A DNA stretch of 64,000 nt from Escherichia phage CJ20. Shown here piece after piece: positions 4,458 through 63,058 of this stretch. The notes beneath the pieces were generated by a model. That model saw nothing but the letters and a program-made list of their open reading frames with translations. It made no database searches and was not told the DNA's origin. Positions within the stretch are counted from its first letter, which is position 1; each line of letters starts with the position of its first letter. Made by a program: the position numbers and the translations under genes. The stretch lies in the sequence record MT533174.1; one strand, written 5' to 3'.

Positions 4458-4487
4458 GTTTACAACGGCAATGGATTGCCGTATGAT
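4458..4487 (+). promoter_or_regulatory. Early sigma70-type promoter (GTTTACA -35, TATGAT -10) with a 6-bp hairpin in the spacer
   Basis: TTTACA 4459-4464, 17-bp spacer containing CGGCAA-TGGA-TTGCCG, TATGAT 4482-4487; upstream of imm. Confidence 0.5.
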
Positions 4488-4524
4488 TACCCCATCAACT
4501 GATGAATAACTTGAGGATATTAAA

Positions 4525-4767
4525 ATGGAAGCATTAATTGCGGGTACTGTTGTTCTTGGTGCAGGTTCTTTCTTCCTGGCTGCACTGGCATATTTTCTGC
4601 CGTGGATTATCGCGCTACTGCGTGGAACCAAAAGTAATTGCGGAATCTTCTTTGTTAACCTTCTGTTAGGTTGGACAATGGTTGGATGGTTTATTGCATT
4701 TATCTGGGCACTTGTTGCTGAACGTAAATCAAACGCACAAGTAATTATCATCAAGGAAGCAAAATGA
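4525..4767 (+). CDS. imm: Superinfection immunity protein Imm-like (two transmembrane helices)
   Basis: 80 aa with two hydrophobic helices; immediately downstream of gene 43 as in T4. Confidence 0.65.
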   Translation: MEALIAGTVVLGAGSFFLAALAYFLPWIIALLRGTKSNCGIFFVNLLLGWTMVGWFIAFIWALVAERKSNAQVIIIKEAK

Positions 4768-8612: not shown

Positions 8613-8642
8613 GTTTACATCACCATAAAAAGGGTGTACTAT
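8613..8642 (+). promoter_or_regulatory. Early sigma70-type promoter
   Basis: TTTACA 8614-8619, 17-bp spacer, TACTAT 8637-8642; followed by leader motif CCATCAACTACTGATGAGGA 8647-8666. Confidence 0.5.
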
Positions 8643-8673
8643 TATCCCATCAACTACTGATGAGGATAATAAA

Positions 8674-8922
8674 ATGTTATTAGTTAATGTGCATTACCAG
8701 TTCAAATCTGAAGAAGCTCTCCAAAAGTATGCTGATATTTGTGAGCATAATAAAAGAACAGCTGCCATTGTTGGTCTGAAGCCTTTTAAAATTTTGGATT
8801 GCTCCTTGAACAGAGCAAGGCGCTGGTGTAGTGTTGCCTGTCATGCTTCAGTTGAAGGGAATGATTATTTTTTCATTACTTTCAATGCACAAGATTTTCA
8901 TTTAATTAATGAATTAAAATAG
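8674..8922 (+). CDS. Hypothetical protein (82 aa)
   Basis: ATG 9 nt after GAGGA of leader motif; Cys-containing; no homology recognised. Confidence 0.45.
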   Translation: MLLVNVHYQFKSEEALQKYADICEHNKRTAAIVGLKPFKILDCSLNRARRWCSVACHASVEGNDYFFITFNAQDFHLINELK

Positions 8923-8923
8923 T

Positions 8924-8951
8924 GTACAAGCCCCTTGTCTTAGGACATAAT
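8924..8951 (+). promoter_or_regulatory. Early sigma70-type promoter
   Basis: TGTACA 8924-8929, 16-bp spacer, CATAAT 8946-8951, then leader motif TGATTCCATACTGAG. Confidence 0.5.
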
Positions 8952-9001
8952 GATTCCATACTGAGTTACACAATAAACCAACTGTTAAAAAGGAAAACCA
9001 T

Positions 9002-9304
9002 ATGTTTAATCAAACCGACATGAATCGTTACTATTTTGGACAATTCGCTCGCCGTGATGAAAACTGTGCTGCTCTTATCGCATCAGGCATTCAAACTGGT
9101 AAATTAATAAAGCTCAAAAGCGATGTTCAACCTTCATCTGTTCGCAGCTCTCTTCGTGAGTATCTGCTTGCAGGCGGTGAAGTGTACGTCATCGCCGAAC
9201 CTTTTGTTAACGTGTGCGATGATTACACAATTAGTGTGACTGTTATGCACCCAACTACTGGGAAAATTCGTTGTCTGACTATGCACAACTATGAGTTGGC
9301 ATAA
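9002..9304 (+). CDS. Hypothetical protein (100 aa)
   Basis: ORF with own promoter and terminator; no homology recognised. Confidence 0.45.
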   Translation: MFNQTDMNRYYFGQFARRDENCAALIASGIQTGKLIKLKSDVQPSSVRSSLREYLLAGGEVYVIAEPFVNVCDDYTISVTVMHPTTGKIRCLTMHNYELA

Positions 9305-9311
9305 GTGAACA

Positions 9312-9334
9312 AAGGGGCTTACAGCCCCTTTTTC
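9312..9334 (+). terminator. Rho-independent terminator (AAGGGGCT-TACA-AGCCCCTT + T run) overlapping next promoter -35
   Basis: Perfect 8-bp stem, TTTTT tail; CTTACA in the hairpin is 17 bp before TATAAT 9341-9346. Confidence 0.65.
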
Positions 9335-9346
9335 TTATGTTATAAT
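9318..9346 (+). promoter_or_regulatory. Early sigma70-type promoter embedded in terminator hairpin
   Basis: CTTACA 9318-9323, 17-bp spacer, TATAAT 9341-9346, leader CCTATCAACTACTGGAG. Confidence 0.45.
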
Positions 9347-9372
9347 GACCCTATCAACTACTGGAGAATAAA

Positions 9373-9690
9373 ATGAAAACCATTGATTGCAAGGCAGAAT
9401 ACAAAGTTTATTATCATGGGTCAAGCTCTAATGCTGGAATCCAAAATATGCTTTGTCCTCCTGATGCAACTGGTGTTCTGTCAGAAGTTGGGCGTAAGAA
9501 AAATTTAGGGCGTGTGTTTTTTACTGAAGATATTGGTTTGGCGCGTATCTATGCAGGAAGAGCAGCTCGCTCATATGGAGGAGAACCCCGTCTTTATCGT
9601 GTGATTGCACCTGTTGACGTGGTTTGTTTAAATGATACTAAAGGCGCAACAGTTTATCACGCTGCCTGGGCGTTTTGTGAGGAAATCTAA
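9373..9690 (+). CDS. Hypothetical protein (105 aa) with ADP-ribosyltransferase-like motifs (YHGS and FTEDxGxAR)
   Basis: Motif FFTEDIGLARIYA mirrors SFTEDYGIARDFA of the ModA/ModB-type protein at 15854; ends at TAA directly followed in frame by next ATG. Confidence 0.5.
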   Translation: MKTIDCKAEYKVYYHGSSSNAGIQNMLCPPDATGVLSEVGRKKNLGRVFFTEDIGLARIYAGRAARSYGGEPRLYRVIAPVDVVCLNDTKGATVYHAAWAFCEEI

Positions 9691-9896: not shown

Positions 9897-9928
9897 GTTT
9901 ACATCAAAGGGATAATGCTGTATATTAT
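9897..9928 (+). promoter_or_regulatory. Early sigma70-type promoter
   Basis: GTTTAC 9897-9902, TATATTAT 9921-9928, leader CCTATCAACTACTGAGGAG. Confidence 0.5.
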
Positions 9929-9954
9929 CCCTATCAACTACTGAGGAGATTGAA

Positions 9955-10248
9955 ATGAAAAAGTTATTAATCGCAGCAATTCTTACCGTAGCATCATGTG
10001 GTACAGCTCCAGTTACTGCTGGACTTGATAAAGACCTTTGTGAGTGGTCTATGACCGCCGACCAGACTGATGTTGAACATCAGATTTATGCTGATATCAT
10101 GAACATTACTAAACGTGACCGTCCAGATATGGTTAAAGAAGTATCTGACCAACTGGCTTCTGGTGACGTTATGCAGTATAACTATGTTCTGTATTGCGAT
10201 GCTTCATTTGACAACAGCAAGATTGTTCAATGGGTTACAGGTGAATAA
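9955..10248 (+). CDS. sp: Spackle-like periplasmic protein (signal peptide)
   Basis: 97 aa, same length as T4 Sp; N-terminal signal peptide; motif DKDLCEWSMTADQT recalled from T4 Sp; located between genes 41 and 61 as in T4. Confidence 0.55.
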   Translation: MKKLLIAAILTVASCGTAPVTAGLDKDLCEWSMTADQTDVEHQIYADIMNITKRDRPDMVKEVSDQLASGDVMQYNYVLYCDASFDNSKIVQWVTGE

Positions 10249-12682: not shown

Positions 12683-12709
12683 GAAGGGATTCCGGTAAGT
12701 TCCACAGAA

Positions 12710-13844: not shown

Positions 13845-13893
13845 CTAAAATGACTGAAGCCAATAAAGCAGTCCAAGCCGTCAAATTGTAAGT

Positions 13894-13901
13894 TATAAAT
13901 A
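13894..13901 (+). promoter_or_regulatory. Late promoter box TATAAATA for soc
   Basis: Exact T4 late consensus 30 nt upstream of soc ATG with SD AAGGAG. Confidence 0.6.
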
Positions 13902-13931
13902 CACCCATATTAAACAACAAAGGAGTTTAAT

Positions 13932-14165
13932 ATGGGTGGTTTCGTTAATATCAAAACCTTCACGCATCCAGCTGGTGAAGGTAAAGAAGTTAAAGGTACT
14001 GAGGTTTCAGTTCTGTTTGAGATTTATTCAAACGAGCACCGTATTGCCAATGCTCATTATCAGACTTTCCCTTCGGCCGTTGCAGCCTATACTACTGTAG
14101 TGACTGATGCAGCCGATTGGCGAACTAAGAACGCGGCGATGTTTACGCCGACTGATATTGTTTAA
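13932..14165 (+). CDS. soc: Small outer capsid protein Soc
   Basis: 77 aa; VNIKTF, AHYQTFPS, AAYTTV match remembered T4 Soc; late promoter upstream, terminator downstream. Confidence 0.75.
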   Translation: MGGFVNIKTFTHPAGEGKEVKGTEVSVLFEIYSNEHRIANAHYQTFPSAVAAYTTVVTDAADWRTKNAAMFTPTDIV

Positions 14166-14170
14166 TTATA

Positions 14171-14193
14171 GGGAACCTTCGGGTTCCCTTTTT
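14171..14193 (+). terminator. Rho-independent terminator (GGGAACC-TTCG-GGTTCCC + T run)
   Basis: Perfect 7-bp stem with TTCG tetraloop and TTTTT, right after soc. Confidence 0.75.
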
Positions 14194-14216
14194 GCTTTTA
14201 ATAGAGATGGTATAAT
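14191..14216 (+). promoter_or_regulatory. Putative MotA-dependent middle promoter
   Basis: TTTGCTTTTA (TGCTT 14193-14197) 18 bp before TATAAT 14211-14216. Confidence 0.35.
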
Positions 14217-14241
14217 TATCTCAACTACAGAGGAGAATACT

Positions 14242-14439
14242 ATGTTAAACCGTTGGATTAAACCGAACAAAACTTTAGACGAAGTTATTGCCCATGATGT
14301 ACATTTTAAGTATGGTCTGGGTGTGTTTGATGAGGTTGTCGTACACTCGTTCATGATGCACGATGATGATTCTTTAGAATTTAATATTGAAATCCGTTGT
14401 GATGATGGTAAAGTTGAATTTAAACGAGGTTTCCTATGA
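14242..14439 (+). CDS. Hypothetical protein (65 aa)
   Basis: ATG 14242 preceded by SD GAGGAG. Confidence 0.4.
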   Translation: MLNRWIKPNKTLDEVIAHDVHFKYGLGVFDEVVVHSFMMHDDDSLEFNIEIRCDDGKVEFKRGFL

Positions 14440-14795
14440 TTAGTTGGCTCAAGAATTTATTCAAGACTAAGCCGAATGAAGGTGTGGTTCCTGTTAGCCT
14501 ACCAGATGTCAAGCTAAGAGAATATGTTTACATGGGCGATGGTATGATGGAAGAAGTTCGTCGCCGACCAGAAAAAGCCGGTAATGTCGGACCAGGTGCA
14601 TTGCCATTGAATTCGAAAAAGTTAAAAGAGCATCTGGATTCAAGACGTTCTACAAGCCATGCCGATACTACACCGCATATTGATATGACTCCGATTGTGG
14701 TTACTGCGGCCGCTGTCAGTTCGTGGACTGGTGATTCGTCTTATTCCTCCTATGATTCAGGAAGCTGCGATTCGTCTTCCAGCTCGTGTGATTAA
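14436..14795 (+). CDS. Hypothetical protein (119 aa) with Ser/Cys-rich C-terminal tail
   Basis: C-terminus TGDSSYSSYDSGSCDSSSSSCD; no homology recognised. Confidence 0.5.
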   Translation: MISWLKNLFKTKPNEGVVPVSLPDVKLREYVYMGDGMMEEVRRRPEKAGNVGPGALPLNSKKLKEHLDSRRSTSHADTTPHIDMTPIVVTAAAVSSWTGDSSYSSYDSGSCDSSSSSCD

Positions 14796-14990
14796 ATGAG
14801 AATTACAAGTTGGCTTAAAGATTGGTTGGTTACTCCAGGGATTGATGATTCCTGGGTGGCCAGAGCCGAGGAAGAAATGCAGCGCGAAGCTGAAGAATGG
14901 GCGGCTACAGGGCTTAAAGTCATGCAGGAAAAGAAGACCGAAAGAGCTGCGCTTAAACTGATGCGTGATATCTACGGAGATAAATCATGA
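14796..14990 (+). CDS. Hypothetical protein (64 aa)
   Basis: ORF in series; Glu/Ala-rich helical-looking sequence. Confidence 0.4.
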
Positions 14991-15136
14991 CACAAGAAGA
15001 AGCTGAACGTCAGGCAAAAGAAGCACTGGATTTGCTTTTGAAAATTGGCAGTAAAATGATGGAAGAAAATGAAAAGTACATCAAGGAAAATAAAATTCCT
15101 GATGGTCCATTAGTTGGTAAGAGGAAATCATTATGA
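14987..15136 (+). CDS. Hypothetical small protein (49 aa)
   Basis: ATGA overlap with previous stop; below ORF-track cutoff. Confidence 0.3.
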
Positions 15137-15621
15137 AAGTATACGAATTAGAATTCTATGTCCGTGATTCGGCTGGGCAAACACGACTTTACGATGCTAC
15201 CGCATGTCTTATCATGGTTTACAATGGCATGGATTCGGTTACCGAATTGGAAACAAAATTAATGAACATGACGATGCCGGAAAACGTTATGCTGAAGGTA
15301 TTTCATAGAAAAAACGTTGATGTGGCTGAAGGGTGTCCGTTTACTGTTTCCGAAGCTCTACACATTAAAGGCTATCGTCACCCGGACCCATATGCAGAAG
15401 GTACTGCGGATATTTTCTATAAAGATAGAGATAAAATGGCCACTGAACGCCTTAAAGGTCGCACATATCTGATTTCCACTACCGACGACCTTGCTGAAGT
15501 TGAACGTCAGATTTGGAAGCACTTTGATATCGGCTTGCGCTTTACTTTAACAGAAGAAGCTATTCAAGATACTAAAATGCGTGCTCGTATGTATGGTTAC
15601 GGTCCGATTGGTGGTTACTAA
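15133..15621 (+). CDS. Hypothetical protein (162 aa)
   Basis: SD GAGGAAATCATTATG; lies in the T4 mrh/modA.x interval; not assigned. Confidence 0.5.
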
Positions 15622-15797
15622 TGGATTTATTTGAACTTTTTGAAGAGCCTAAAGCTCCCACAGAAGCCCGTGTGGACCTAGTTGACGAGCTTGATGCGAT
15701 TATACAGAAGCATGGTTTTAGTCTCCCGTTGGAAGTTCTACGCGACCTGGCCTCATATTACGACGACCCACCTCCATGGGCACCATGGAAACAGTAG
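15621..15797 (+). CDS. Hypothetical small protein (58 aa)
   Basis: TAATG overlap; acidic; below ORF-track cutoff. Confidence 0.35.
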   Translation: MDLFELFEEPKAPTEARVDLVDELDAIIQKHGFSLPLEVLRDLASYYDDPPPWAPWKQ

Positions 15798-15826
15798 TTT
15801 ACTTACTCCCCTCCTAATGACATAAT
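15797..15826 (+). promoter_or_regulatory. Early sigma70-type promoter
   Basis: GTTTAC 15797-15802, 18-bp spacer, CATAAT 15821-15826. Confidence 0.45.
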
Positions 15827-15853
15827 GGTCTTTCTTACAACAGAGAGGCCATT

Positions 15854-16414
15854 ATGAACATCATCAAATCTGATACCGAACCCAACCAGTTAAAATTTAG
15901 TGAAATGGAGATAGCTTCATTATTTGAATGCCGCACATCAAAGGTTGATAAGGCATTGCATTCAAACGTTAACTCAATCATCAAGTCAAGGTTATCTGTG
16001 CCTGATACAGTCTTGTATCGTGGGATTACCCAGCAAGAGATTGATTTGTTAGATGAAGCAAAAGAATCAATGCAACCTTTTGAATTTGGAAGGATAACCT
16101 CCTTTACAGAAGACTATGGTATTGCCAGGGATTTTGCCGCAATGGAATATGTGTCAAGGACTATCATCAGATTGAATCATACAAAAGCTTTTTGTTACCA
16201 TGATGCGATGCGCAAAATCGCGCTTGACGTTCCACTGGAATTCTTCAATACAGCTTCTGGTTCCGAACAGGCAGCAACGTTAAGACGTGAAGAATACATG
16301 GACATGATTGATTCTGAGCTTGAATGGTTTGTTCCAGTTGACCAGAAATTCGTGATAGTTGATGCTGGATTTGTTGGTGATTATTATGTTCTTGACTGTG
16401 TACAAGCACAATAA
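15854..16414 (+). CDS. ADP-ribosyltransferase, ModA/ModB family
   Basis: 186 aa; R-S-E type motifs LYRGIT, ITSFTED, ELEWFVPVD; first of a tandem pair; ModA versus ModB orthology not resolved. Confidence 0.7.
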   Translation: MNIIKSDTEPNQLKFSEMEIASLFECRTSKVDKALHSNVNSIIKSRLSVPDTVLYRGITQQEIDLLDEAKESMQPFEFGRITSFTEDYGIARDFAAMEYVSRTIIRLNHTKAFCYHDAMRKIALDVPLEFFNTASGSEQAATLRREEYMDMIDSELEWFVPVDQKFVIVDAGFVGDYYVLDCVQAQ

Positions 16415-16427
16415 GACATGTTAAGAT
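16399..16427 (+). promoter_or_regulatory. Early sigma70-type promoter
   Basis: TGTACA 16399-16404, 17-bp spacer, TAAGAT 16422-16427; followed by leader CCTATCAACTACTGATGAGGA 16431-16451. Confidence 0.45.
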
Positions 16428-16458
16428 GTTCCTATCAACTACTGATGAGGATAATAAA

Positions 16459-17073
16459 ATGCTGTACGCAAGTCACCAATTAGCAGAGTACATCAATGCA
16501 GTTAAATGTGAATATTTTCGTGAAAATACCCAGATTGAAATTGATGAAATTTACTCTGAGTTGGAACAGAGTACACTCTGGCAGTGTATGGAAAATAAGC
16601 CAGACACTATCCAGGAAACTTTGAACAAAATTATTCGTAAGAATTTGACTTCTGCTGTGCCTGGTAAGTTATATCGCGGGATTTCTAAGAAAACTTTGGC
16701 ATATCTTGAAACCGTAGGATGTGTTGGTGCTACGATTGAGTTTGACCGTGTAATGAGTTTCTCCAAAGATTTCAAAGTCGCACGTAACTTTGCTTCCTTT
16801 AGCTTCTATGGAACCAAAAATATTTTCTGTATTAATGATGCACCATTCGCATTTGATTATCAGGAAGCGATTTTTAAAATGATTTGTGCGGCACCTCCTG
16901 AAGAGTTCAATGGACTATATCCTGAAATAACTCGTTCTTCAAACTTGCAATTAGTAAATGATGAAGATGAGATGATGTTCCCTGCGGGAACTACGCTACG
17001 CGTGGACTCTATTGAGAGCATTTATAGATGGGAAGACTATAAATTATGGAATCTTTCCGTTCTTTCTTACTGA
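16459..17073 (+). CDS. ADP-ribosyltransferase, ModA/ModB family (second tandem copy)
   Basis: 204 aa; LYRGIS, MSFSKD, DEDEMMFPAG motifs; ATG 16459 with SD GAGGA. Confidence 0.7.
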   Translation: MLYASHQLAEYINAVKCEYFRENTQIEIDEIYSELEQSTLWQCMENKPDTIQETLNKIIRKNLTSAVPGKLYRGISKKTLAYLETVGCVGATIEFDRVMSFSKDFKVARNFASFSFYGTKNIFCINDAPFAFDYQEAIFKMICAAPPEEFNGLYPEITRSSNLQLVNDEDEMMFPAGTTLRVDSIESIYRWEDYKLWNLSVLSY

Positions 17074-17155
17074 AGTATTCTGGGTTAACAAAAGGCCAAA
17101 GACCTTAGAACCATTATACACAGTAAAAATAAAAGCGTTAAAGGTGAAAAAGTAG

Positions 17156-17183
17156 TGTACATAAAAGATGAATAGTGTATAAT
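17156..17183 (+). promoter_or_regulatory. Early sigma70-type promoter
   Basis: AGTAGTGTACA, TGTACA 17156-17161, TATAAT 17178-17183, leader TGATTTCATACTGAG. Confidence 0.5.
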
Positions 17184-17229
17184 GATTTCATACTGAGTTT
17201 TCAATCGTCCGTAAGATGAGAAAAATATC

Positions 17230-17976
17230 ATGACTTTATCAAAAACCAAAACGCTGAAAGTTAAACGTCGTCTGGAACACACTCAAGCTTCCGCTAAACG
17301 TCGCGGTAAGGACTTTAACCTGGATTTTAATTATCTGGTTAACATTCTTGACCAAAAAGTTTGTGCCTATTCTGGTGAAGCATTTAACAACTCTATTGAA
17401 GATGAGAAGTTATCATTAGAGCGTTTTAACAATGATATTGGTTATATCAAAGGTAATGTTATTCCTGTTAAAAAGAAATACAATACCATGCGTTCTGATT
17501 GGTCCCTTGATGAGCTTAAACAACGTCGTGATGATGTTGCTGTAAAAATTGCTCGCCCATCCGCCAAGAAGATTGAAAAGTTAAATCTGACTGCAGAGAA
17601 ATGGGAACAGATTAAAAAGTCATATACTCATATCAAGAACATCCAACACAAACGTGAGAATCGCGTTAAACATTATGCTCAAATGAGTAAATCAGAGCAG
17701 TCTAAAGAAAACCAATTAAAAATGGTTGCTCTGAAGGCTCGCATTGATGGTTCCCGTGTTGCGGAAGGTCATGAGCTTACTAAATTGAATGTATTGCTCA
17801 AAGGTAATGACTGGAAAGTTACCAAGAAATTAACTAATGCTGAAACGCTTTTTGATTGCTATGATAAAATCATTCAAGGTCTTGAGCGTTTTGAGAAGAT
17901 TGGTTTTATTGGTAAATTAAAACTGAAACGTGGTCTACCTTTGAACGCGTCAATTTTTAAACTGATTAGAGGTTAA
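17230..17976 (+). CDS. Lys-rich protein, Srd-like by position
   Basis: 248 aa basic protein between the mod genes and dda, where T4 carries srd; synteny and size only. Confidence 0.45.
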   Translation: MTLSKTKTLKVKRRLEHTQASAKRRGKDFNLDFNYLVNILDQKVCAYSGEAFNNSIEDEKLSLERFNNDIGYIKGNVIPVKKKYNTMRSDWSLDELKQRRDDVAVKIARPSAKKIEKLNLTAEKWEQIKKSYTHIKNIQHKRENRVKHYAQMSKSEQSKENQLKMVALKARIDGSRVAEGHELTKLNVLLKGNDWKVTKKLTNAETLFDCYDKIIQGLERFEKIGFIGKLKLKRGLPLNASIFKLIRG

Positions 17977-17980
17977 TGTG

Positions 17981-18277
17981 ATGTACTACGCATATGTGCT
18001 GGTTCACAAAGATAAAGATGGTTTTGAACGCCCATTGGAGTATGATGGAAAGGTTACCTTATACACCACAAAACCGGGCGCAGAGTATGAACTTGCCAAC
18101 TATTCATATACTACAAACCGCTATTTACGCATGGGACGTATTGAAACACGGTATATTCCCAGAAAATGGTGGTTTGATAAGCGGGAAACAAAAACTGTTT
18201 TTCCTACTGAAGAACACGCACGAGAATTGAAATTAGTTTTAGATACTTTATATGTTAAGCGAGTAAAATTGGCATGA
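17981..18277 (+). CDS. Hypothetical protein (98 aa), dda.1 position
   Basis: ATG 17981 (GTG 17978 also possible); immediately upstream of dda. Confidence 0.45.
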   Translation: MYYAYVLVHKDKDGFERPLEYDGKVTLYTTKPGAEYELANYSYTTNRYLRMGRIETRYIPRKWWFDKRETKTVFPTEEHARELKLVLDTLYVKRVKLA

Positions 18278-20510: not shown

Positions 20511-20517
20511 AAAGTAG

Positions 20518-20546
20518 TGTACAAGGCCAATGGAAAGAGACATAAT
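20518..20546 (+). promoter_or_regulatory. Early sigma70-type promoter
   Basis: AAAAAGTAGTGTACA, TGTACA 20518-20523, CATAAT 20541-20546, leader TCATCAACTACTGATGAGGA 20551-20570. Confidence 0.5.
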
Positions 20547-20577
20547 CATCTCATCAACTACTGATGAGGATAACAAA

Positions 20578-20835
20578 ATGATTACTTCTTTTGAAATTGG
20601 CCAACAATATGAAATGTCTGCTCTTCAAGCTGCTGAAGCAGGTCTGACTAAAGCGTTTGAATGTGCATTTGCAAATATTCGTGGTAAAATCTTTACTGTC
20701 AATAAAATTGCGGTATATGATAAAGAAACAGACATGAACAAAGGCATCTACCTGAACGTGTCAAATGCAAAAGGTCGTCGTGAAATTATGGTTGTACAAC
20801 CTAATCAACTGGCGATGTTCAATAAGGTTGCATAA
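20578..20835 (+). CDS. Hypothetical protein (85 aa)
   Basis: ATG 8 nt after GAGGA of leader motif. Confidence 0.45.
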   Translation: MITSFEIGQQYEMSALQAAEAGLTKAFECAFANIRGKIFTVNKIAVYDKETDMNKGIYLNVSNAKGRREIMVVQPNQLAMFNKVA

Positions 20836-21590: not shown

Positions 21591-21595
21591 ATTTG

Positions 21596-21624
21596 TGTAC
21601 ATACTCTTGGGACCAGAGTATAAT
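21596..21624 (+). promoter_or_regulatory. Early sigma70-type promoter with -10 inside hairpin loop
   Basis: TGTACA 21596-21601, TATAAT 21619-21624; hairpin GGGACC(AGAGTATAAT)GGTCCC 21609-21630. Confidence 0.5.
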
Positions 21625-21666
21625 GGTCCCACTGGAGAATAAACTTATTAACCAAGAGAGAAAATT

Positions 21667-22158
21667 ATGAAAGTTGAAGCTGGTGATATTGTACGTGTTT
21701 CTAAAGAATCTCGTTCTAAAGCTGCTGGTCGTTTTGTTGAGGTTGTGGGTCTTCGCACTAATTTAGTAGGTGGAATTAAAGAAGTTAAAGTGCGTATTAT
21801 TCCTAAACATGGTCATGCTGAAACTCAATTGGCTTATGTACATCCTAAATTCCTGGAATCAACTGAATTTACTGGATACATCGCTCCAGTAGTTGAAGAA
21901 GTTGAAACCATTGACCAGTCTCATGTTGGGGTTGATTTTAAATGGAAATTAGGTAAAGGTGTCTTTTTCGTTTCACCTAAACCGTTTGAATACAAGTGCA
22001 AGTATGGTCCGACTTATGAAACCACTAGTATGTCCGGTTACATCACCGACCAGTGGGTTGAAGAAGGCGTTAAGCTCTATAACATCGTGTTCCTTGGAAC
22101 CTTTAAGGTTGTTCCTGAGAGCTTTATCGTTGAGTATGCTGATATTCATTTTGCCTAA
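21667..22158 (+). CDS. Hypothetical protein (163 aa), C-terminal DQWVEEGV domain
   Basis: C-terminus GYITDQWVEEGVKLYNIVFLGTFKVVPESFIVE parallels GWVTDQWIEDGVELLNVVHAGEFTVVPRSMVVE of previous gene. Confidence 0.5.
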   Translation: MKVEAGDIVRVSKESRSKAAGRFVEVVGLRTNLVGGIKEVKVRIIPKHGHAETQLAYVHPKFLESTEFTGYIAPVVEEVETIDQSHVGVDFKWKLGKGVFFVSPKPFEYKCKYGPTYETTSMSGYITDQWVEEGVKLYNIVFLGTFKVVPESFIVEYADIHFA

Positions 22159-30913: not shown

Positions 30914-30924
30914 TTAAAAAGTAG

Positions 30925-30954
30925 TGTACATCAGTATGGAGTCTAATGTATAAT
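30925..30954 (+). promoter_or_regulatory. Early sigma70-type promoter
   Basis: AAAAAGTAGTGTACA, TGTACA 30925-30930, TATAAT 30949-30954, leader TGATTCCATACTGAG. Confidence 0.5.
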
Positions 30955-30988
30955 GATTCCATACTGAGCTACTAACTGGAGAAACAAA

Positions 30989-31252
30989 ATGAAATTTAAA
31001 TTTTACTATGTCAAGCATAAAGTTACTGGGGAATTTGTTGCATTTACAACTTCATCCAATAATCAAGGTGATACTTTTACTTCATTGTTCTTATCCAGAT
31101 GGGATTCAGACCAGCCTTATTTGTCCACAAAAGAGCATCTTCAACGTATGGCGAAGGGCGAGCTAAACGATTCTTGGGATAATATTGTGAATAATTGTAT
31201 CAAGAAAGCTATCCAAGAAAATCAACTTGAAATCATTGAGGTGGAATTGTGA
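30989..31252 (+). CDS. Hypothetical protein (87 aa), tandem paralog A
   Basis: N-terminus MKFKFYYVKHKVTGEFVA; paralog of next ORF. Confidence 0.5.
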   Translation: MKFKFYYVKHKVTGEFVAFTTSSNNQGDTFTSLFLSRWDSDQPYLSTKEHLQRMAKGELNDSWDNIVNNCIKKAIQENQLEIIEVEL

Positions 31253-31515: not shown

Positions 31516-31607
31516 GCAGCAAAACCTGGTGTCTTATCTGGATGTTGTGTATCCCAGTAATTTGCGTTTGTTTTAGTTTATTATTAATGAAACTTGCATA
31601 AAAGAGT

Positions 31608-31635
31608 TGTACATCTCCGGTGGTTGTAGTATAAT
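31608..31635 (+). promoter_or_regulatory. Early sigma70-type promoter
   Basis: TGTACA 31608-31613, 16-bp spacer, TATAAT 31630-31635, leader CCTATCAACTACTGGAG. Confidence 0.45.
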
Positions 31636-31661
31636 GAACCTATCAACTACTGGAGATGATT

Positions 31662-31778
31662 ATGAAAAAGTTACTTAAAGCCATTTGGAACATGTTTGTG
31701 CTGTTTGTTGTCCTGAGCATTTTCCCAATTGTTTTTATGATTGACCATGTGCGTGTTTACTTTAACTATTTCTTTTGA
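31662..31778 (+). CDS. Small membrane peptide (38 aa)
   Basis: ATG 31662 after leader motif; one hydrophobic helix. Confidence 0.3.
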   Translation: MKKLLKAIWNMFVLFVVLSIFPIVFMIDHVRVYFNYFF

Positions 31779-32252: not shown

Positions 32253-32597
32253 ATGTCTAAAGTATTTTTTGGTAATGCTAAAGTTATGTTCTTTAAACAG
32301 ATTAGCCTTCAGGAGGCGTCGGAGGCATTCAATCAAAGTATGATTCCTGACGTACATCCAAAAGTTATGACGAGTGCTGATTTCGTTTTCGTCCAAGACC
32401 CGGAAACAGGCTTTTATCGGTTCATTAAATTTCGTATGAGTATGGAGCCAGGTTATCATAGTGCTTACTACGTGAGTTATGAAAATGTTATCAAAGAATT
32501 GCGTAATACCTATAAGCGCGCTTTGACCCCGCTGAATAAGGTGTATAATGCTTCCTTTTATACGAGCGGATTTATTTTAGAACAACTTCAAAAATAG
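32253..32597 (+). CDS. Hypothetical protein (114 aa)
   Basis: SD GAGGAAAATATTATG; no homology recognised. Confidence 0.45.
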   Translation: MSKVFFGNAKVMFFKQISLQEASEAFNQSMIPDVHPKVMTSADFVFVQDPETGFYRFIKFRMSMEPGYHSAYYVSYENVIKELRNTYKRALTPLNKVYNASFYTSGFILEQLQK

Positions 32598-32626
32598 TGT
32601 ACATACTCTTGGGGTCAGAGTATAAT
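32598..32626 (+). promoter_or_regulatory. Early sigma70-type promoter with -10 inside hairpin loop
   Basis: TGTACA 32598-32603, TATAAT 32621-32626; hairpin GGGGTCA(GAGTATAA)TGACCCC 32611-32632. Confidence 0.5.
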
Positions 32627-32670
32627 GACCCCACTGGAGCACAAAACTTTAACTTACTGAGGAAATTAAT

Positions 32671-33120
32671 ATGACTACTTACATGACCCGTCGTGACGTA
32701 CTGAATGCTGGCGCTACCACTGTTGCTCACATCCATAATGGCAATTATGTTGCAGGGCGTCCAACTAAAGAAGCTATCGCCCAACCAGGTTTTTATTTCG
32801 TGGTCAAAGGTGAAGGCGAATCGCGTATTGTTGCCGCACGTTTTTATGTTGGTAACCAACGTTCACAACAAGGGTTTGACACTGTATTAAGTCACATCCG
32901 CAAACAGCGTTCACAACTGTCACGCACAATGGCGAACAATGGTGTTATCTATGAAGTCCTGTTTGTTCCAGTTTCTAAAATGAAACCCCTGACAACTGGT
33001 TATGGTAAAGGTCAAATTGCGATGGCGTTCACTCGCTCACATAGTTCTGATTGCCAGACCCTTTCAGAAATGAATCGCATGCTTGCTGATAACTTTAAAT
33101 TCATTCTGCAGAGCTATTAA
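32671..33120 (+). CDS. ndd: Nucleoid disruption protein Ndd
   Basis: 149 aa; [43 protein letters not shown] match remembered T4 Ndd. Confidence 0.8.
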
Positions 33121-34960: not shown

Positions 34961-34974
34961 ATTTTAAAAAGTAG

Positions 34975-35003
34975 TGTACAATCCCCTTGACCTGATGCAT
35001 AAT
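34975..35003 (+). promoter_or_regulatory. Early sigma70-type promoter
   Basis: AAAAAGTAGTGTACA, TGTACA 34975-34980, CATAAT 34998-35003, leader TGATTCCATACTGAG. Confidence 0.5.
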
Positions 35004-35052
35004 GATTCCATACTGAGTTACAAACTGAATCACAAAAACTTTGGAGAATAAA

Positions 35053-35268
35053 ATGTTTACTGCACAACAGAATGAAGGTCAAGAATACATTAACGCTAAA
35101 TTCAAATCTAATAAAGAAGCTTGCTATTATTACTTTGACATGTTCAAACTGGCGAATTCTAAAGAAGAACGTAAACAAGCGATTGATGTTATTGTTTCTA
35201 CTTCCCATATGAAGCGTACTGTGGTACAATCATATGCATCCAATTACATGAAATCTATTAAGGGATAA
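35053..35268 (+). CDS. Hypothetical protein (71 aa)
   Basis: ATG 35053 after SD GGAGAATAAAATG. Confidence 0.4.
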   Translation: MFTAQQNEGQEYINAKFKSNKEACYYYFDMFKLANSKEERKQAIDVIVSTSHMKRTVVQSYASNYMKSIKG

Positions 35269-37083: not shown

Positions 37084-37248
37084 ATGAGTCATAACTTAGA
37101 GAACACCATCACTGGTCAGCGTACACGCGAGCAGGCTTGCTTTGAGGAATTCCTTGGAGCTGATTTTAAGTTCCAGGAACCAGTTGAACAGTTGTATCAG
37201 GAATATGTTGTACAGATGGAAAATCATGTGTACAACCCAGAGGAATAA
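37084..37248 (+). CDS. Hypothetical small protein (54 aa)
   Basis: SD AAGGAGAATCACTATG; acidic. Confidence 0.3.
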   Translation: MSHNLENTITGQRTREQACFEEFLGADFKFQEPVEQLYQEYVVQMENHVYNPEE

Positions 37249-37306
37249 TAGTACAATATCCCTACTGAATAATTGAATGTCTTATTGAATACTTGAGTAA
37301 ATTAAA

Positions 37307-37582
37307 ATGACTAAATTTGAAATCGTTTCTGAAATTGTTACTGTAACTTCAATTTTGATTAAAACCGACCGGGAAGATATTACGATGAAGCGTGATGTGT
37401 TTATCGCGTTTTTGAATGAGTTGGGATTGAGGAATGAGAATGGTAATGAGTTAAACAATGTATCGTTTAACAAGTTGTTTAAAAGTTTATCTGAAGATGA
37501 AATTGAACAAATCATTGAACAATTTAACGAAGGATTCGAAGATATACACCGTTATCTTATGATGTATACCTCCGGATTCTAA
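37307..37582 (+). CDS. asiA: Anti-sigma70 factor AsiA
   Basis: 91 aa; EIVTVTSILIK, FIAFLNE.G, EQFNEGFE..HRYL.MYT match remembered T4 AsiA. Confidence 0.85.
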   Translation: MTKFEIVSEIVTVTSILIKTDREDITMKRDVFIAFLNELGLRNENGNELNNVSFNKLFKSLSEDEIEQIIEQFNEGFEDIHRYLMMYTSGF

Positions 37583-52042: not shown

Positions 52043-52057
52043 ATTTTCAAAAAGTAG

Positions 52058-52086
52058 TGTACAAGTCCTTTGAGCTAAGGCATAAT
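52058..52086 (+). promoter_or_regulatory. Early sigma70-type promoter
   Basis: AAAAAGTAGTGTACA, TGTACA 52058-52063, CATAAT 52081-52086, leader CCATCAACTACTGATAACAACTGAGGA. Confidence 0.5.
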
Positions 52087-52124
52087 GATTCCATCAACTA
52101 CTGATAACAACTGAGGAAATAAAA

Positions 52125-52487
52125 ATGGAAATCGGCAAAAAATATGAGTTCAATCCACATCGTATTAAATCTTTCATTGATATTAGTTCATCGAATGCTA
52201 GTATGGTCGACATCATCCAAGAAAATGGCGGTTGGTTTGAAGTTAAATCAATATCAAGTGCAGACGGCTATGATTATGTAACCGAAATCATTTGTGCTAA
52301 TGGTGCAATCTATAATGATGATGGCATGGGTGATGATTATTTTGAACTTAGTGAAGAAGAGTTTTATTGCTTCCGCGAATACTCCAGTTATGCAAAAACA
52401 CCTTCAGGGGCGGTTTCTATTAATTGTGTTGTGGATGCTAATAACGTCGACCAAATCATTGAACTTCTACAAAAAGCTTTCAAATAA
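52125..52487 (+). CDS. Hypothetical protein (120 aa), paralog of 52834-53202
   Basis: Shares G.Y, FI, DY, YFEL.E.EF..F.E spacing with ORF 52834. Confidence 0.5.
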   Translation: MEIGKKYEFNPHRIKSFIDISSSNASMVDIIQENGGWFEVKSISSADGYDYVTEIICANGAIYNDDGMGDDYFELSEEEFYCFREYSSYAKTPSGAVSINCVVDANNVDQIIELLQKAFK

Positions 52488-52489: not shown

Positions 52490-52520
52490 GTTTACAACGG
52501 GTCTATGGTTGAGATACTAT
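52490..52520 (+). promoter_or_regulatory. Early sigma70-type promoter
   Basis: GTTTACA 52490-52496, TACTAT 52515-52520, leader CCTATCAACTACATGAGGA 52524-52542. Confidence 0.45.
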
Positions 52521-52549
52521 AGGCCTATCAACTACATGAGGAAAATAAA

Positions 52550-52777
52550 ATGGCTAAAGTTAATATTGATATCGTTGATTTTGAATACACTTACGAAGTT
52601 ATCCGCAATCGTTATCCTTCTTTGTGTATGACTTACATTAAAGATACCCAATTCTTTAGTGTTCAAATTGAAGTCCAGGGTCCTCTTGAAGACCTTACCC
52701 GCTTTATGCAAAATGAATATTGCGAAGGGATGCACCCGGAAGACGCTAAATTTTATATGAATTTGATTGAAGCTTAG
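52550..52777 (+). CDS. Hypothetical protein (75 aa)
   Basis: ATG after leader motif; no homology recognised. Confidence 0.45.
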
Positions 52778-53458: not shown

Positions 53459-53465
53459 AAAGTAG

Positions 53466-53494
53466 TGTACAACCAAATGGGGCTATGACATAAT
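53466..53494 (+). promoter_or_regulatory. Early sigma70-type promoter
   Basis: AAAAAGTAGTGTACA, TGTACA 53466-53471, CATAAT 53489-53494, leader TGGTCCCATACTGAG. Confidence 0.5.
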
Positions 53495-53531
53495 GGTCCC
53501 ATACTGAGTTACCAAATAACTGGAGAATAAA

Positions 53532-53771
53532 ATGAAATTACAACGTGAGAGCATCAAAGATTCAGAAGTTAAAGGTAAATGGTACTTCACAATCCAGGGT
53601 AACAATCCAGAAGCTCTGGAAAAAGCTGAACAAGCTTTGTGTGAAATGGGTTGGAAAGATGAGTGTGATGGTTGTCCTCTTTATGAAGATGGCAGCTCGT
53701 CTGGTTTCTGGATTCACCACTCTGATGTTGACCAATTTAAAGCTGACTGGAAAGTTGCTAAGAAAGCGTGA
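53532..53771 (+). CDS. Hypothetical protein (79 aa)
   Basis: SD GGAGAATAAAATG; contains CDGC. Confidence 0.45.
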   Translation: MKLQRESIKDSEVKGKWYFTIQGNNPEALEKAEQALCEMGWKDECDGCPLYEDGSSSGFWIHHSDVDQFKADWKVAKKA

Positions 53772-60959: not shown

Positions 60960-60970
60960 TAAAAAAGGGG

Positions 60971-60999
60971 TGTACAAGCCCCTCCTTTCTATACATAAT
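60971..60999 (+). promoter_or_regulatory. Early sigma70-type promoter
   Basis: GGGGTGTACAAGCCCC hairpin containing TGTACA 60971-60976, CATAAT 60994-60999, leader CCATCAACTACTGATGAGGA 61004-61023. Confidence 0.5.
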
Positions 61000-61030
61000 G
61001 GTTCCATCAACTACTGATGAGGACTAAAAC

Positions 61031-61264
61031 ATGTTAAACTTAATTACAAATGAAAGAGTTACACAGGCATATGGTGACAGTAATGACGGAATCTATGTCT
61101 ACAAGGGAGACCGCCGGATTGGTTTCATTACTGACCTGAAGGCCAAATTGTTAAAAGAACTGAAAGCTCAAACAGGTGATTCTGGGTTTAGAGCAAGAGC
61201 CAAAAAGAAAGATGAACGCCTGGGTGCCAACTCTTTTGGTCCCCGGGGTTACAACCGCTACTAA
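61031..61264 (+). CDS. Truncated paralog of the Alc N-terminus (77 aa)
   Basis: N-terminal 45 aa (GDSNDGIYVYKGDRRIGFITDLKAKL) parallel Alc (GDRHDGIYVYKGTKKIGLMTDLRKKL) encoded immediately downstream. Confidence 0.5.
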   Translation: MLNLITNERVTQAYGDSNDGIYVYKGDRRIGFITDLKAKLLKELKAQTGDSGFRARAKKKDERLGANSFGPRGYNRY

Positions 61265-62412: not shown

Positions 62413-62516
62413 TTGAGTCTTGTATCGATGGGTCGGATGTCATTCTATTTGGCTTTACATGCTTTTGTTTTGGAATCGTGCTTAGCATGTGTATAAATGG
62501 TATTTTTGGAAAGTAG

Positions 62517-62545
62517 TTTACAAACTCTTGGGAGCAGAGTATAAT
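62517..62545 (+). promoter_or_regulatory. Early sigma70-type promoter with -10 inside hairpin loop
   Basis: TTTACA 62517-62522, TATAAT 62540-62545; hairpin GGGAGC(AGAGTATAAT)GCTCCT 62530-62551. Confidence 0.5.
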
Positions 62546-62573
62546 GCTCCTACGGATTATAAAATTTGAGGAA

Positions 62574-63058
62574 ATGACTATGACATTACGTGATAACAGT
62601 TTTGTGGCTAAGCCTGAATACATTTCAGGTGTTAAATCCCCTGCATTACAAAAGCTCTTAAAATTAGGGTCCTGTGCAAGTACACCAATTGAAAAGAAGG
62701 CAACTTTTGATTTTGCTTGGGCTATGGTGGACGGTATTGATGTAGTAAGACAGGTAACTTTTTATGCTCCGGGCGCTATTAAGCCTTCGCAAATTATTAA
62801 TCTGGATGGAAGTAATTATATTACTATTCAGCATTGGTATCGTATGATGCGACCTGTTTGGGAATACCCGGAATTTATTGAAGAATACAATGAAAAAGAA
62901 CGTATTCGTGAGCTAGTAAAAAGTTTTGAATACGCGGCTAAACGCCATGGTCAAATGCAATCTGCCGCTGCACTTGGTGATGTTTCTGAAAGTGCAGCTT
63001 ATGAAACTGGTAAAATCCTTAAAACCTGTCGCGAAGAACTTTATAAGGAGCTTGGCGT

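Follow-up and report, generated by a model that had tools for sequence, protein, structure and literature searches.

A conserved start sequence in the early-promoter cassettes of a T4-like coliphage

Early-promoter cassettes and the genes behind them

The DNA analysed here, a 64,000-nucleotide stretch of Escherichia phage CJ20 (MT533174.1) that we call the window, is that of a T4-like coliphage. This phage falls into the SP18/VR20/RZ group (Gaprivervirus), and the window is 97% identical to Gaprivervirus phages. The early genes lie on its plus strand. We identified 20 early-promoter cassettes, which take the form of an A-rich tract, GT(G/T)TAC, a gap of 17–19 nt and (C/T)ATAAT (Table 1). All 20 show the features of T4-type sigma-70 early promoters: two hexamers 17–19 nt apart and an A-rich tract, on the early strand and 5′ of an ORF. 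A separate sigma-70 consensus scan of positions 8400–21700 recovered the same promoters, the one at 16398 excepted. In 19 of the 20 cassettes, an A that follows C or T is the seventh base past the −10 hexamer, and this A is the predicted +1. The +1 positions are predictions from this geometry (the 7-nt rule) and from T4 annotation practice. The rule was checked on the T4 record, where Pe133295 is named for position 133295, exactly the A that is seventh after the −10. C is preferred at −3 to −1 ahead of the start in RB69, RB49 and 44RR (Nolan 2006, PMC1524935).

Table 1. Early-promoter cassettes of the window, with predicted start sites and start sequences (SD, Shine–Dalgarno).
Cassette	Coordinates	Strand	Predicted +1	Start sequence	ATG	Other features
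imm, variant motif A	4458..4527	+	4494	ATCAACTGATGA	4525	−35 GTTTAC at 4458; −10 TATGAT at 4482–4487; 8-bp palindrome in spacer
Motif A, 82-aa ORF	8613..8676	+	8649	ATCAACTACTGATGAGGATAATAAAATG	8674	discriminator TATCC pairs with GGATA, so that SD occlusion is predicted for read-through RNA alone; energy to open 5.3 vs 13.8 kcal/mol, p = 0.03
Motif B	8922..9004	+	8958	ATACTGAGTTAC	9002	
Motif A	9311..9375	+	9353	ATCAACTACTGGAGAATAAAATG	9373	−35 hexamer in loop of terminator-like hairpin 9311–9331; SD GGAGAAUAAAA fits RegB consensus (consensus from PMC3014915)
sp (spackle), motif A	9897..9957	+	9933	ATCAACTACTGAGGAG	9955	orthologous leaders: T4 ATAAACTACTGAGGAG, JS98 ATCCACTAATGAGGAG
Without motif, 5′ of modB-like gene	15797..15856	+		+1 region TCTTAC		CATAATGGTCTTTCT pairs with AGAGAGGCCATTATG; SD and AUG predicted buried in read-through RNA; 2.3 vs 18.8 kcal/mol, p = 0.016
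modA-like gene, motif A (flagged site)	16398..16461	+	16434	ATCAACTACTGATGAGGATAATAAAATG	16459	−10 TAAGAT at 16422–16427; opening energy 4.1 vs 9.1 kcal/mol, p = 0.066
srd, motif B	17155..17232	+	17190	ATACTGAGTTTT	17230	
Motif A	20517..20580	+	20553	ATCAACTACTGATGAGGATAACAAAATG	20578	stem CTCATCA/TGATGAG extends into SD; 3.4 vs 15.1 kcal/mol, p = 0.03
motB, shortest leader form	21595..21669	+	21631	ACTGGAGAATAAAC		RegB-consensus GGAG at 5′ end; stem GGGACC/GGTCCC around −10 (p = 0.003); architecture as in T4 motB promoter
Motif B	30924..30991	+	30961	ATACTGAG	30989	13-bp inverted repeat TCAGTATGGAGTC / GATTCCATACTGA around −10 (p = 0.007); downstream gene varies among relatives
ndd.4-like ORF, motif A	31607..31664	+	31642	ATCAACTACTGGAGAT		motif and SD complementary over 18 bp to spacer ATCTCCGGTGGTTGTAG, G.U pairs included (p = 0.003); opening energy 2.1 vs 15.1 kcal/mol, p = 0.016
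ndd	32597..32673	+	32633	ACTGGAGCAC		stem GGGGTC/GACCCC around −10 (p = 0.02), compensatory vs stem at 21595
motA.1-like ORF and motA, motif B	34974..35055	+	35010	ATACTGAGTTAC	35053	SD GGAGAATAAAATG; UUCG-loop terminator directly 5′
asiA	37228..37309	+	37264	ACTGAATAAT		
Motif A	52057..52127	+	52093	ATCAACTACTGATAAC	52125	SD 10 nt further
frd.3-like, variant motif A	52490..52552	+	52527	ATCAACTACATGAGGA	52550	
frd.1-like, motif B	53465..53534	+	53501	ATACTGAGTTAC	53532	SD GGAGAATAAAATG; repeat around −10, p = 0.053
Small alc-like ORF, motif A	60970..61033	+	61006	ATCAACTACTGATGAGGACT	61031	stem AGGGG/CCCCT around −35; opening energy 2.6 vs 10.0 kcal/mol, p = 0.098
Leader also in JS98	62516..62582	+		ACGGATTATAAA		stem GGGAGC/GCTCC(T) around −10, p = 0.05

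The cassettes have the layout of the PeSL cassettes (Arbiol 2010, PMC2839356; Comeau 2014, PMC4122927): an AT-rich tract, sigma-70-like −35 and −10 hexamers, a stem-loop, an SD and an ATG. A stem-loop near the promoter is visible in most of them, and its placement varies as it does in PeSLs (within the spacer, across the −10 or flanking the −35). Folding of 100-mers from the cassettes is slightly more stable than that of random windows, even though their GC content is lower (p = 0.04). The hexamers differ, being GTGTAC and CATAAT here compared with TTGACA/TATAAT in RB49 and TTTACW/TAYWAT in PST and T4. The motif family belongs to a known portable module of promoter and ribosome site, the PeSL type, which makes the finding real and largely ordinary. 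However, published accounts of PeSLs focus on the promoter and its stem-loop, not on the segment from +1 to +12, which is the most constrained part here.

Like PeSLs, the cassettes lie 5′ of small variable early ORFs, and indels and replacements in close relatives start there. This agrees with the proposal of the first-pass annotation that the motifs mark the boundaries of exchangeable gene cassettes, as gene replacements and indels between relatives do start at cassette edges. Against RZ and VR20 there are four cassette-linked events, which involve small ORFs; the junction is at the motif edge in one of the four and on the −35/UP side in three. VR20 is without the 8613 cassette and its ORF, with the junctions in promoter elements, and both RZ and VR20 have an additional ORF as an insertion immediately 5′ of the −35 in the 15797 cassette. 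After the 30924 cassette, at least three alternative contents occur among 39 genomes, and divergence sets in directly past CCATACTGAG. The insertions of homing-endonuclease size lie away from the cassettes. In T4, cassettes of approximately 70 nt are near-identical, shared spacers included. For RB49 mini-circles, mapping placed the crossovers in the interval from the −10 to the SD/ATG (PMC2839356).

The sequence from +1 to +12

Two conserved leader motifs, A and B, had been listed between the −10 element and the ribosome-binding site of many early genes, and we found the listed sequence at every one of the positions. A search of the whole window with CATCAACTACTGA, allowing up to two mismatches, gave 12 matches against 1.8 expected, a number reached by none of 100 shuffles. 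All nine plus-strand matches lie directly 3′ of a −10 hexamer; the three on the minus strand correspond to the chance level. Motif B gave four matches at up to one mismatch, and 53494 was added at two mismatches. Stray partial matches at 9252 and 13702 were rejected, as they lie inside coding sequence without promoters.

The proposed fixed distance to the promoter was confirmed: the A of ATCAAC or ATACTG is always the seventh base past the −10 hexamer. Motif A (ATCAACTACTGA), motif B (ATACTGAG) and the shorter forms ACTGGAG and ACTGAAT all begin at the predicted +1 A. Because they begin there, the motifs are predicted to be within the RNA, as had been supposed. As originally drawn, the motif opens with one or two bases (C, C/T) that close the discriminator and lie 5′ of the predicted start. 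The division into two motifs did not hold. A and B are one family whose members differ by indels, B being A minus CAACT, and further shortened forms are found at 21631, 32633 and 37264.

The words of the motif are promoter-specific. Of 13 promoter-proximal genes, 6 have ACTAC 5′ of the SD, versus 1 of 65 internal genes, and the motif words are no general ribosome-site context. Roughly one early promoter in two carries the motif in full. G-poor AACTAC/ATACAC leaders are also present at two MotA-box (middle-type) promoters of the window, and the feature is therefore not strictly early-specific.

A strong constraint on the motif is visible in the comparison with RZ and VR20. Positions +1 to +12 are substituted at 3 of 408 sites (0.7%), the lowest rate of all cassette parts, compared with 46 of 544 (8.5%) in the spacer (p = 7e-9), 18 of 204 (8.8%) in the discriminator and 45 of 510 (8.8%) at codon position 3. 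The −35 and −10 hexamers are also less constrained than the first 12 transcribed bases. In T4, the motA, imm.1, e.8, trna.4, denV, nrdC.8, nrdC.10 and ndd.4 promoters start with ATCAACTAC(TGA). JS98 has the same start sequence as T4 and the window; RB69 and RB49 have looser ATC-, G-poor variants. In each of the five phages, the first G to be transcribed tends to fall at +11. No B-type leader (ATACTGAG) was found in the scanned T4 regions.

In IMG/VR, an 18-mer scan matched only genomes of the VR20/VR25/VR26 type and four small contigs, and a 14-mer common to T4 gave mostly single chance matches. BLAST with a whole cassette returned the same genus only. The motif string in full-text literature matched unrelated primers only, and literature searches on RNA-seq mapping of T4 start sites and on the promoters of VR7 gave no usable result. 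The literature searched assigns no function to +1 to +12 and contains no mutational test of the start sequence.

Leader folding and read-through RNA

The primary leaders are predicted to be unstructured, with minimum free energies of 0 to −1.2 kcal/mol in 16 of the 20 cassettes; the folds of all primary leaders are no better than those of shuffles. The energy for opening the region from the SD to the AUG is 3.0 kcal/mol in the primary RNA, 6.7 kcal/mol in read-through RNA and 4.6 kcal/mol with shuffled upstream sequence. When occlusion in read-through RNA was evaluated for each cassette, four reached p ≤ 0.05 and three more p ≤ 0.12. A helix that covers the SD or AUG and has its 5′ arm upstream of the start is clearly predicted at 8613, 15797, 20517 and 31607 (p ≤ 0.03) and more weakly at 16398, 52057 and 60970; no SD-covering read-through helix is predicted in the remaining 13 of 20. 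Across the whole window, complementarity split upstream and downstream of +1 is not significant (mean z −0.15).

Inverted repeats around the −10 occur in 5 of the 20 window cassettes (binomial p = 0.003) and in 11 of 26 T4 cassettes; with the sequence re-partitioned at the −10, the repeats bracket this element in a subset only. The stems GGGACC/GGTCCC, GGGGTC/GACCCC and GGGAGC/GCTCCT show compensatory changes. A T4 GenBank record from 1986 already marks such repeats at the −10 boxes of denV and regB and places the RBS within the 3′ arm. An Rfam scan of the whole window at the gathering threshold gave no match.

These folds suggest that, in about one third of the cassettes, an inverted repeat that extends 5′ of +1 would hide the ribosome site in read-through RNA alone. 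Where the leader continues as TGATGAGGA, or the spacer holds a complement of the leader, a hairpin with its 5′ arm upstream of +1 would form, and it would bury the SD only in RNA that reads through from upstream promoters. The T4 e, soc, 49 and I-TevI hairpins (reviewed in PMC3014915) likewise have the 5′ arm upstream of an internal start, such that only the read-through RNA forms the SD-occluding helix and the promoter-initiated RNA is open. Those hairpins belong to late promoters and were shown experimentally, whereas the window cassettes are early and the helices are predicted, in only about one third of them.

Readings of the start sequence

The hairpin CATCA-ACTAC-TGATG had been proposed as part of the motif, and a hairpin in the primary transcript could control stability or translation at the adjacent SD. 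Of the 10 A copies, 4–5 have the inverted repeat, as do several copies in T4 (AUCA...UGAU); with discriminator bases added, the stem extends over the SD and its energy is −7.8 kcal/mol. However, its first base is at −1, and a +1 at A cuts it to a 4-bp stem of −0.6 kcal/mol that shuffles equal (z > 0). The full TGATG arm is found in 4 of 10 motif A copies, and the 6 of 10 that lack the 3′ arm still keep ATCAACTACTG. The loop ACTAC is conserved as strongly as the stem, covariation is absent within the hairpin, and the primary transcript is predicted to have no stable 5′-terminal stem kept by covariation. A function for this hairpin is thus highly improbable. The proposed RegB-like processing fared better in one part. 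RegB with S1 cleaves at GG*AGRAYARAA (Durand 2006, PMC1702504), and the SDs that follow the motifs (GGAGAAUAAAA, GGAUAAUAAAA) fit this consensus or its cleaved GGAU variant; they include GGAGAATAAAA at approximately 9363, 35040 and 53519 and GGATAATAAAA at 8663 and 16448. The leader at 21631, with GGAGAATAAAC at 21634, has its ortholog in the motB leader of T4, which is a standard substrate for RegB. The GGAU site of motB.2 is cleaved by RegB, and regB homologues occur in Gaprivervirus genomes. The features of a RegB/S1 site (an unpaired GGAG or GGAU with RAYARAA in an early mRNA, and a regB gene) are found in the SD part only. As in known sites, the GGAG lies in SDs and in the conserved motB-type leader, but the conserved motif sits 5′ of it, where published truncations show nucleotides to be dispensable for cleavage (PMC1702504); the motif itself is therefore not the RegB determinant. 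Moreover, 10–20 variable nucleotides separate motif and SD in T4 and at 52093, and the T4 denV leader carries the motif although its GGAG is RegB-resistant. That the motif directs processing by RegB or another endoribonuclease is very hard to sustain.

The motif could also be a homology patch of mobile PeSL-type cassettes, kept uniform by frequent gene conversion or exchange among the cassettes and among co-infecting phages, and thus reflect recombination rather than function. The different ORFs behind the same cassette in relatives with divergence right after CCATACTGAG, the absence of the 8613 cassette and ORF from VR20, the RB49 crossovers and the near-identical T4 cassettes all fit such a history. 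Against it, the adjoining discriminator is neutral-like and differs among paralogous cassettes, and conversion tracts would not end so sharply. The motif is also common to genera with differing −35, −10 and discriminator preferences, and three of the four junctions lie away from it. We regard recombination as an unlikely cause of the conservation. The sharp boundary of constraint and the conservation across genera are compatible as well with a dedicated cis signal (AUCAACUACUGA and its shortened forms) that is read after initiation on the DNA or the nascent 5′ end, and that would be more than an optimised start region. It might be the target of the rapid shut-off of T-even early promoters, or a self-mark by which immediate-early mRNAs of the phage are distinguished from those of the host during phage-induced mRNA decay; we consider this doubtful. 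Still less probable is a post-initiation binding site for a trans-acting factor, be it a phage protein, an RNA or rRNA, for example an early-promoter shut-off factor or a reader of a self-mark on phage early mRNA. Twelve nucleotides under extreme constraint and with no structure of their own would suit such a site, and reviews describe the way in which T4 early promoters are shut off as unknown (PMC2988021, PMC3014915). However, there is no candidate factor, 16S rRNA complementarity is nothing special (z ≥ 0), half of the early promoters do without the full motif, and related leaders follow middle-type promoters. An rRNA-pairing enhancer was rejected, with complementarity to E. coli 16S rRNA no better than that of shuffles, as was a sigma-dependent pause element, as inspection found no −10-like hexamer with A2 and T6 inside the motif. 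The pyrimidines at −2/−1 and the U at +2 mismatch the NAD-capping preference.

We favor the reading, at a probability of roughly 0.6, that A and B are longer and shorter versions of a single element, the initial transcribed sequence (+1 to approximately +12) in the repeated early-promoter cassettes of a T-even-type phage. T4 Pe promoters are described as ‘uber’ promoters with UP, −35 and −10 elements, ‘additional regions of consensus’ and a C-rich −3 to −1 (Hinton 2010, PMC2988021; Nolan 2006, PMC1524935), as is seen here, and approximately ten T4 early promoters, that of motA among them, start with ATCAACTACTGA as in the window. The window phage differs in being of another genus, with its own −35/−10 flavor and different discriminators. 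In the proposed order, a cassette starts with a UP-like tract rich in A, followed by GT(G/T)TAC and a variable spacer in which one half of an inverted repeat often lies. Next come (C/T)ATAAT and a discriminator of 6 nt with C-C/T as its last bases, and then A(+1)TC AACTACTG..., the SD and the ATG. The start element would be part of both the extended promoter and the mRNA 5′ end. It would set the start at pyrimidine(−1)/A(+1), and the G-free, structure-free first ~10 nt would favor productive escape from a very strong promoter. The unstructured leader would allow immediate ribosome loading at the adjacent SD. We infer a benefit for promoter escape and translation. Secondary roles are conceivable in subsets of the cassettes, where the predicted hairpins may occlude the SD in read-through RNA, the conserved flanks may act as homology patches for swaps of the downstream ORF, in PeSL-type shuffling, and the SDs may serve as RegB/S1-consensus cleavage sites.

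For the Gaprivervirus group, the analysis adds 20 early-promoter cassettes with predicted start sites to the annotation, and mapping the cassettes corrected at least one over-long gene start. The predicted read-through-only hairpins suggest a simple route to limit some genes to the immediate-early period. If positions +1 to +12 tune escape, 5′-end stability or translation, they would amount to a concise rule for designing very strong phage promoters, and also to a handle on the timing of early genes.

The motif at the predicted start of early transcripts

The conserved leader motif is the predicted initial transcribed sequence of early-promoter cassettes of the T-even type. The cassettes in the window belong to a known kind of element, the T4 Pe promoters and the promoter-early stem-loop cassettes (PeSLs). 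Around the flagged site (16398-16461), a 4-kb stretch shares 97% identity with Escherichia phages DK-13 and RZ and 93-97% with SP18 and VR20 (genus Gaprivervirus, Tevenvirinae). Annotation transferred from RZ and VR20 gives the order 44/62/regA/43, uvsX, 41, sp, 61, modB/modA, srd and dda, followed by motB, 39, rIIA/B, ndd, 52, motA and asiA, then tail-fibre genes on the opposite strand, and finally rnh, 32, frd, td, nrdA/B, rnlA and alc. The plus strand is therefore the one for early and middle genes.

Every motif copy reported in the first-pass annotation is present. The motif A core, with up to two mismatches, gave 12 matches against 1.8 expected, a number reached in 0 of 100 shuffles. All nine matches on the plus strand directly follow a -10 hexamer; the three on the minus strand are no more than expected by chance. 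The promoters found with a regular expression were called again by an independent consensus scan (8400-21700, without 16398). We compiled 20 cassettes, named here by start coordinate, with an A-rich tract, GT(G/T)TAC, 17-19 nt, a (C/T)ATAAT-like hexamer, 6 nt ending in C-C/T, and then A. This A follows the 6-nt discriminator in 19 of the 20, and all motif forms begin with it. As it is the seventh base after the -10, the proposed fixed distance from sigma70-type promoters holds. The leader takes form A (ATCAACTACTGA) in ten cassettes, two of them variants, form B (ATACTGAG) in five, ACTGGAG in two, and ACTGAAT and ACGGATT in one each. A and B had been described as separate motifs; they are a single family of varying length, because dropping CAACT from A gives B. 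ACTAC, CAACT and ACTG occur 5' of the Shine-Dalgarno sequence (SD) at 6-10 of 13 promoter-proximal genes vs 1-5 of 65 internal genes, so the motif is a feature of the promoter with its start site rather than of ribosome-binding sites generally.

Sigma-70 promoters usually start at the seventh base after the -10. The T4 RefSeq promoter Pe133295 is named for position 133295, which is an A, seventh after its -10 and directly preceded by CT. The start is preceded by a C-rich -3 to -1 in RB69, RB49 and 44RR, as confirmed for RB49 by 5' mapping (Nolan et al. 2006, PMC1524935). On the basis of the -10 geometry, Pe133295 and the RB49 mapping, the motif corresponds to +1 to +12 of the predicted transcript. 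The leading C(C/T) in the motif as originally drawn falls at -2/-1, upstream of the predicted +1.

Constraint and distribution among T4-like phages

We aligned 34 orthologous cassette pairs between the window and RZ and VR20. Substitutions were found at 3/408 positions (0.007) in +1 to +12, 4/238 (0.017) in the -35, 5/238 (0.021) in the -10, 22/628 (0.035) in the rest of the 5'UTR, 51/816 (0.062) in the UP tract, 46/544 (0.085) in the spacer and 18/204 (0.088) in the discriminator, with 16/1020 (0.016) at codon positions 1+2 and 45/510 (0.088) at position 3. The start segment is thus more constrained than either promoter hexamer, and differs from spacer, discriminator and third positions with p between 5e-9 and 7e-7. 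The constraint sets in sharply at +1, a pattern that favours selection acting on these bases over homogenisation through long conversion tracts.

The same start is found at many T4 early promoters. TACTAT-acaact/taccct-ATCAACTACTGATAC... occurs at imm.1, e.8, motA, the promoter at 167086 and one upstream of cef; trna.4 starts with ATCAACTACTGAGGAG, denV with ATCAACTACAGGAG, nrdC.8 with ATCAACTACGGAGG and ndd.4 with ATCAACTATGGAGG, and ipI and regB have the degenerate forms ATCAAAA/ATCAG. JS98 has ATCAACTACTGGAGG, ATCAACTACTGAGGAG, ATCAACTTGGAG and others, RB69 has ATCAACTACAGAGG, ATCAACCATAGGAG and ATCAAAACAAGAGG, and RB49 has ATCGACAAC... and ATCGAAAAC... An ATC start followed by some 10 nt poor in G is therefore general among these T4-like coliphages, and the first transcript G clusters at +11 in all five phage sets. 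The full ATCAACTACTG is common to T4, JS98 and the window's genus despite differing preferred -35 (GTTTAC vs GTGTAC), -10 (TACTAT vs CATAAT) and discriminator sequences. In an IMG/VR scan the 18-mer form was confined to the window's genus. A literature text search found no mention of the motif string, and we found no published description of a conserved start sequence in this genus.

Some T4 early cassettes (T4 coordinates 55384, 146875; 27080, 70696, 166807; T4 stretches L002/L006/L007) fall into groups with identical spacers, either aagcataaagctttatgg, which is perfectly palindromic and includes a HindIII site, or aagactgttcttcc(a/g)tgg. Such sharing points to entire cassettes having been duplicated or converted recently in T4. 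Upstream of cef (T4 minus strand, L002 6570-6640), the spacer of a cassette holds ATCAGTAGTTGAT, which repeats that cassette's leader ATCAACTACTGAT exactly, in inverted orientation, and a very short ORF (ATGGAAAATTCGCTAAAGGTGTTGATACTCTTCTGA) follows the cassette.

RNA structure, RegB-type sites and read-through

Predicted folds give the primary leaders (+1 to AUG) almost no structure (MFE between 0 and -1.2 kcal/mol for 16/20; z-scores against shuffles mostly positive). The hairpin CATCA-ACTAC-TGATG, proposed earlier, is reduced to AUCA/UGAU (-0.6 kcal/mol) when the transcript begins at the A. Its TGATG arm is missing from 6/10 A copies, and the "loop" ACTAC is conserved as much as the "stem"; the hairpin is thus no explanation for the conservation. 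There is no Rfam family match anywhere in the window, and the motifs are not especially complementary to 16S rRNA. The suggestion of a RegB-like site fits the SDs that follow the motifs. Strong RegB/S1 sites have the published consensus GG*AGRAYARAA (PMC3014915). GGAGAAUAAAA occurs as the SD in several places in the window, and GGAUAAUAAAA, the SD that goes with motif A, is identical to the T4 motB.2 site, one of two GGAU sites reported to be efficiently cut. In T4 the standard RegB substrate is the GGAG of the motB leader, to which the leader at 21631 (ACUGGAGAAUAAAC) is orthologous, and regB homologues are found in the genus. The motif itself is not a RegB determinant, since truncation experiments with RegB/S1 required no nucleotide 5' of GGAG (PMC1702504) and T4 denV has the motif yet is RegB-resistant. 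The excess constraint over the -35 and -10 gives a dedicated post-initiation signal in +1 to +12 a small probability. The G-poor, motif-like leaders of two MotA-box promoters (AACTACAGAGGAG, ATACACAAGAGG) argue against a strictly early-specific factor.

In many cassettes the 5' arm of an inverted repeat is located upstream of +1. Repeats bracketing the -10 were significant in 5/20 window cassettes (binomial p=0.003), 11/26 in T4 and 5/10 in RB49. Opening SD to AUG was predicted to cost 3.0 kcal/mol in promoter-initiated RNA, 6.7 in read-through RNA (begun 60 nt upstream) and 4.6 with the upstream part shuffled. The effect was strong (p<=0.03) at 8613, 15797, 20517 and 31607, and less marked at 16398, 52057 and 60970; T4 and JS98 followed the same trend. 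Among the window's candidates for translational gating that depends on the promoter, 15821-15856 is the clearest (predicted 2.3 kcal/mol in promoter-initiated vs 18.8 in read-through RNA). The T4 e, soc, 49 and I-TevI hairpins have the architecture predicted here: a promoter within the hairpin gives an open RBS, and read-through RNA is closed (PMC3014915). As early as 1986, T4 record X04567 marked such repeats at the -10 boxes of denV and regB, the RBS being part of the 3' arm. Occlusion of the SD confined to read-through RNA is predicted for about one third of cassettes and is no general property.

Features of the promoter cassettes and neighbouring sequence (window coordinates)
Position	Feature	Detail
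8608-8941	Cassette A + 82-aa ORF missing in VR20	Junctions within GTGTAC (-35) of neighbouring cassettes
	sp cassette	Extra ORF in VR20 immediately 5'
15797	Extra ORF in RZ and VR20	Immediately 5' of -35
30924	After B cassette: 87-aa ORF; RZ unrelated 51-aa ORF; VR20 none	Divergence right after CCATACTGAG
12676-12748, 23704-23718, 51012-51023, 55794-55907, 58181-58209	RZ insertions, 620-880 nt	Annotated homing endonuclease or endonuclease VII-like
31607	18-bp helix (G.U pairs included)	Spacer ATCTCCGGTGGTTGTAG with motif + SD
30924	Inverted repeat	13 bp
21595, 32597, 62516	GGGACC/GGTCCC, GGGGTC/GACCCC, GGGAGC/GCTCCT	Compensatory changes between them
8613, 16398, 20517, 60970	Discriminator (T)CC pairs with GGA of SD	Lengthens small hairpin
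15821-15856 (cassette 15797)	-10 hexamer + 9 nt (CATAATGGTCTTTCT)	15-bp complement of AGAGAGGCCATTATG (SD + AUG, modB-like gene)
~14170-14240, 23652-23720	Terminators	Then MotA-box (tttGCTTt) + TATAAT middle-type promoters (~14200, 23690)
8584-8601, 25750-25770, 34939-34960, 52018-52040	GC stems, CTTCGG (UUCG-type) loops, T-runs directly 5' of early cassettes	T-run merges with A/T-rich UP tract: composite terminator-promoter
9311-9331	Terminator-like hairpin AAAGGGGC-TTACA-GCCCCTTT, then T-run	Loop holds -35 of 9317 promoter
20578	SD-supported start, 85 aa, as in VR20 annotation	RZ RefSeq gp041 (ortholog) annotated from ATG at 20530, inside promoter spacer
38259-46290	Minus strand, tail-fibre genes (gene 37/38 region)	No alignment >=80% identity to RZ; flanks 88-96%; usual host-range mosaic

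Gene exchange and the proposed role of the start element

An indel and replacement comparison of the window with RZ and VR20 gave four cassette-linked events (Table), in agreement with the earlier claim that the leaders mark boundaries of exchangeable gene cassettes. At 30924, many of 39 database genomes are alignable just as far as the ATG. None of the endonuclease-type RZ insertions lies at a promoter cassette. The cassette-linked events match PeSL-mediated shuffling; PeSL cassettes have been described for PST/T4 (PMC4122927), and RB49 mini-circle crossovers map between the -10 and the SD/ATG (PMC2839356).

We consider it fairly probable (roughly 0.6 for all these points taken together) that the start element acts as part of both an extended promoter and the mRNA 5' end. 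It would fix the A start, and the G-free, unstructured leader would favour fast promoter escape and immediate translation. Subsets of cassettes may add SD occlusion confined to read-through RNA, RegB-type SDs, and service as recombination joints.
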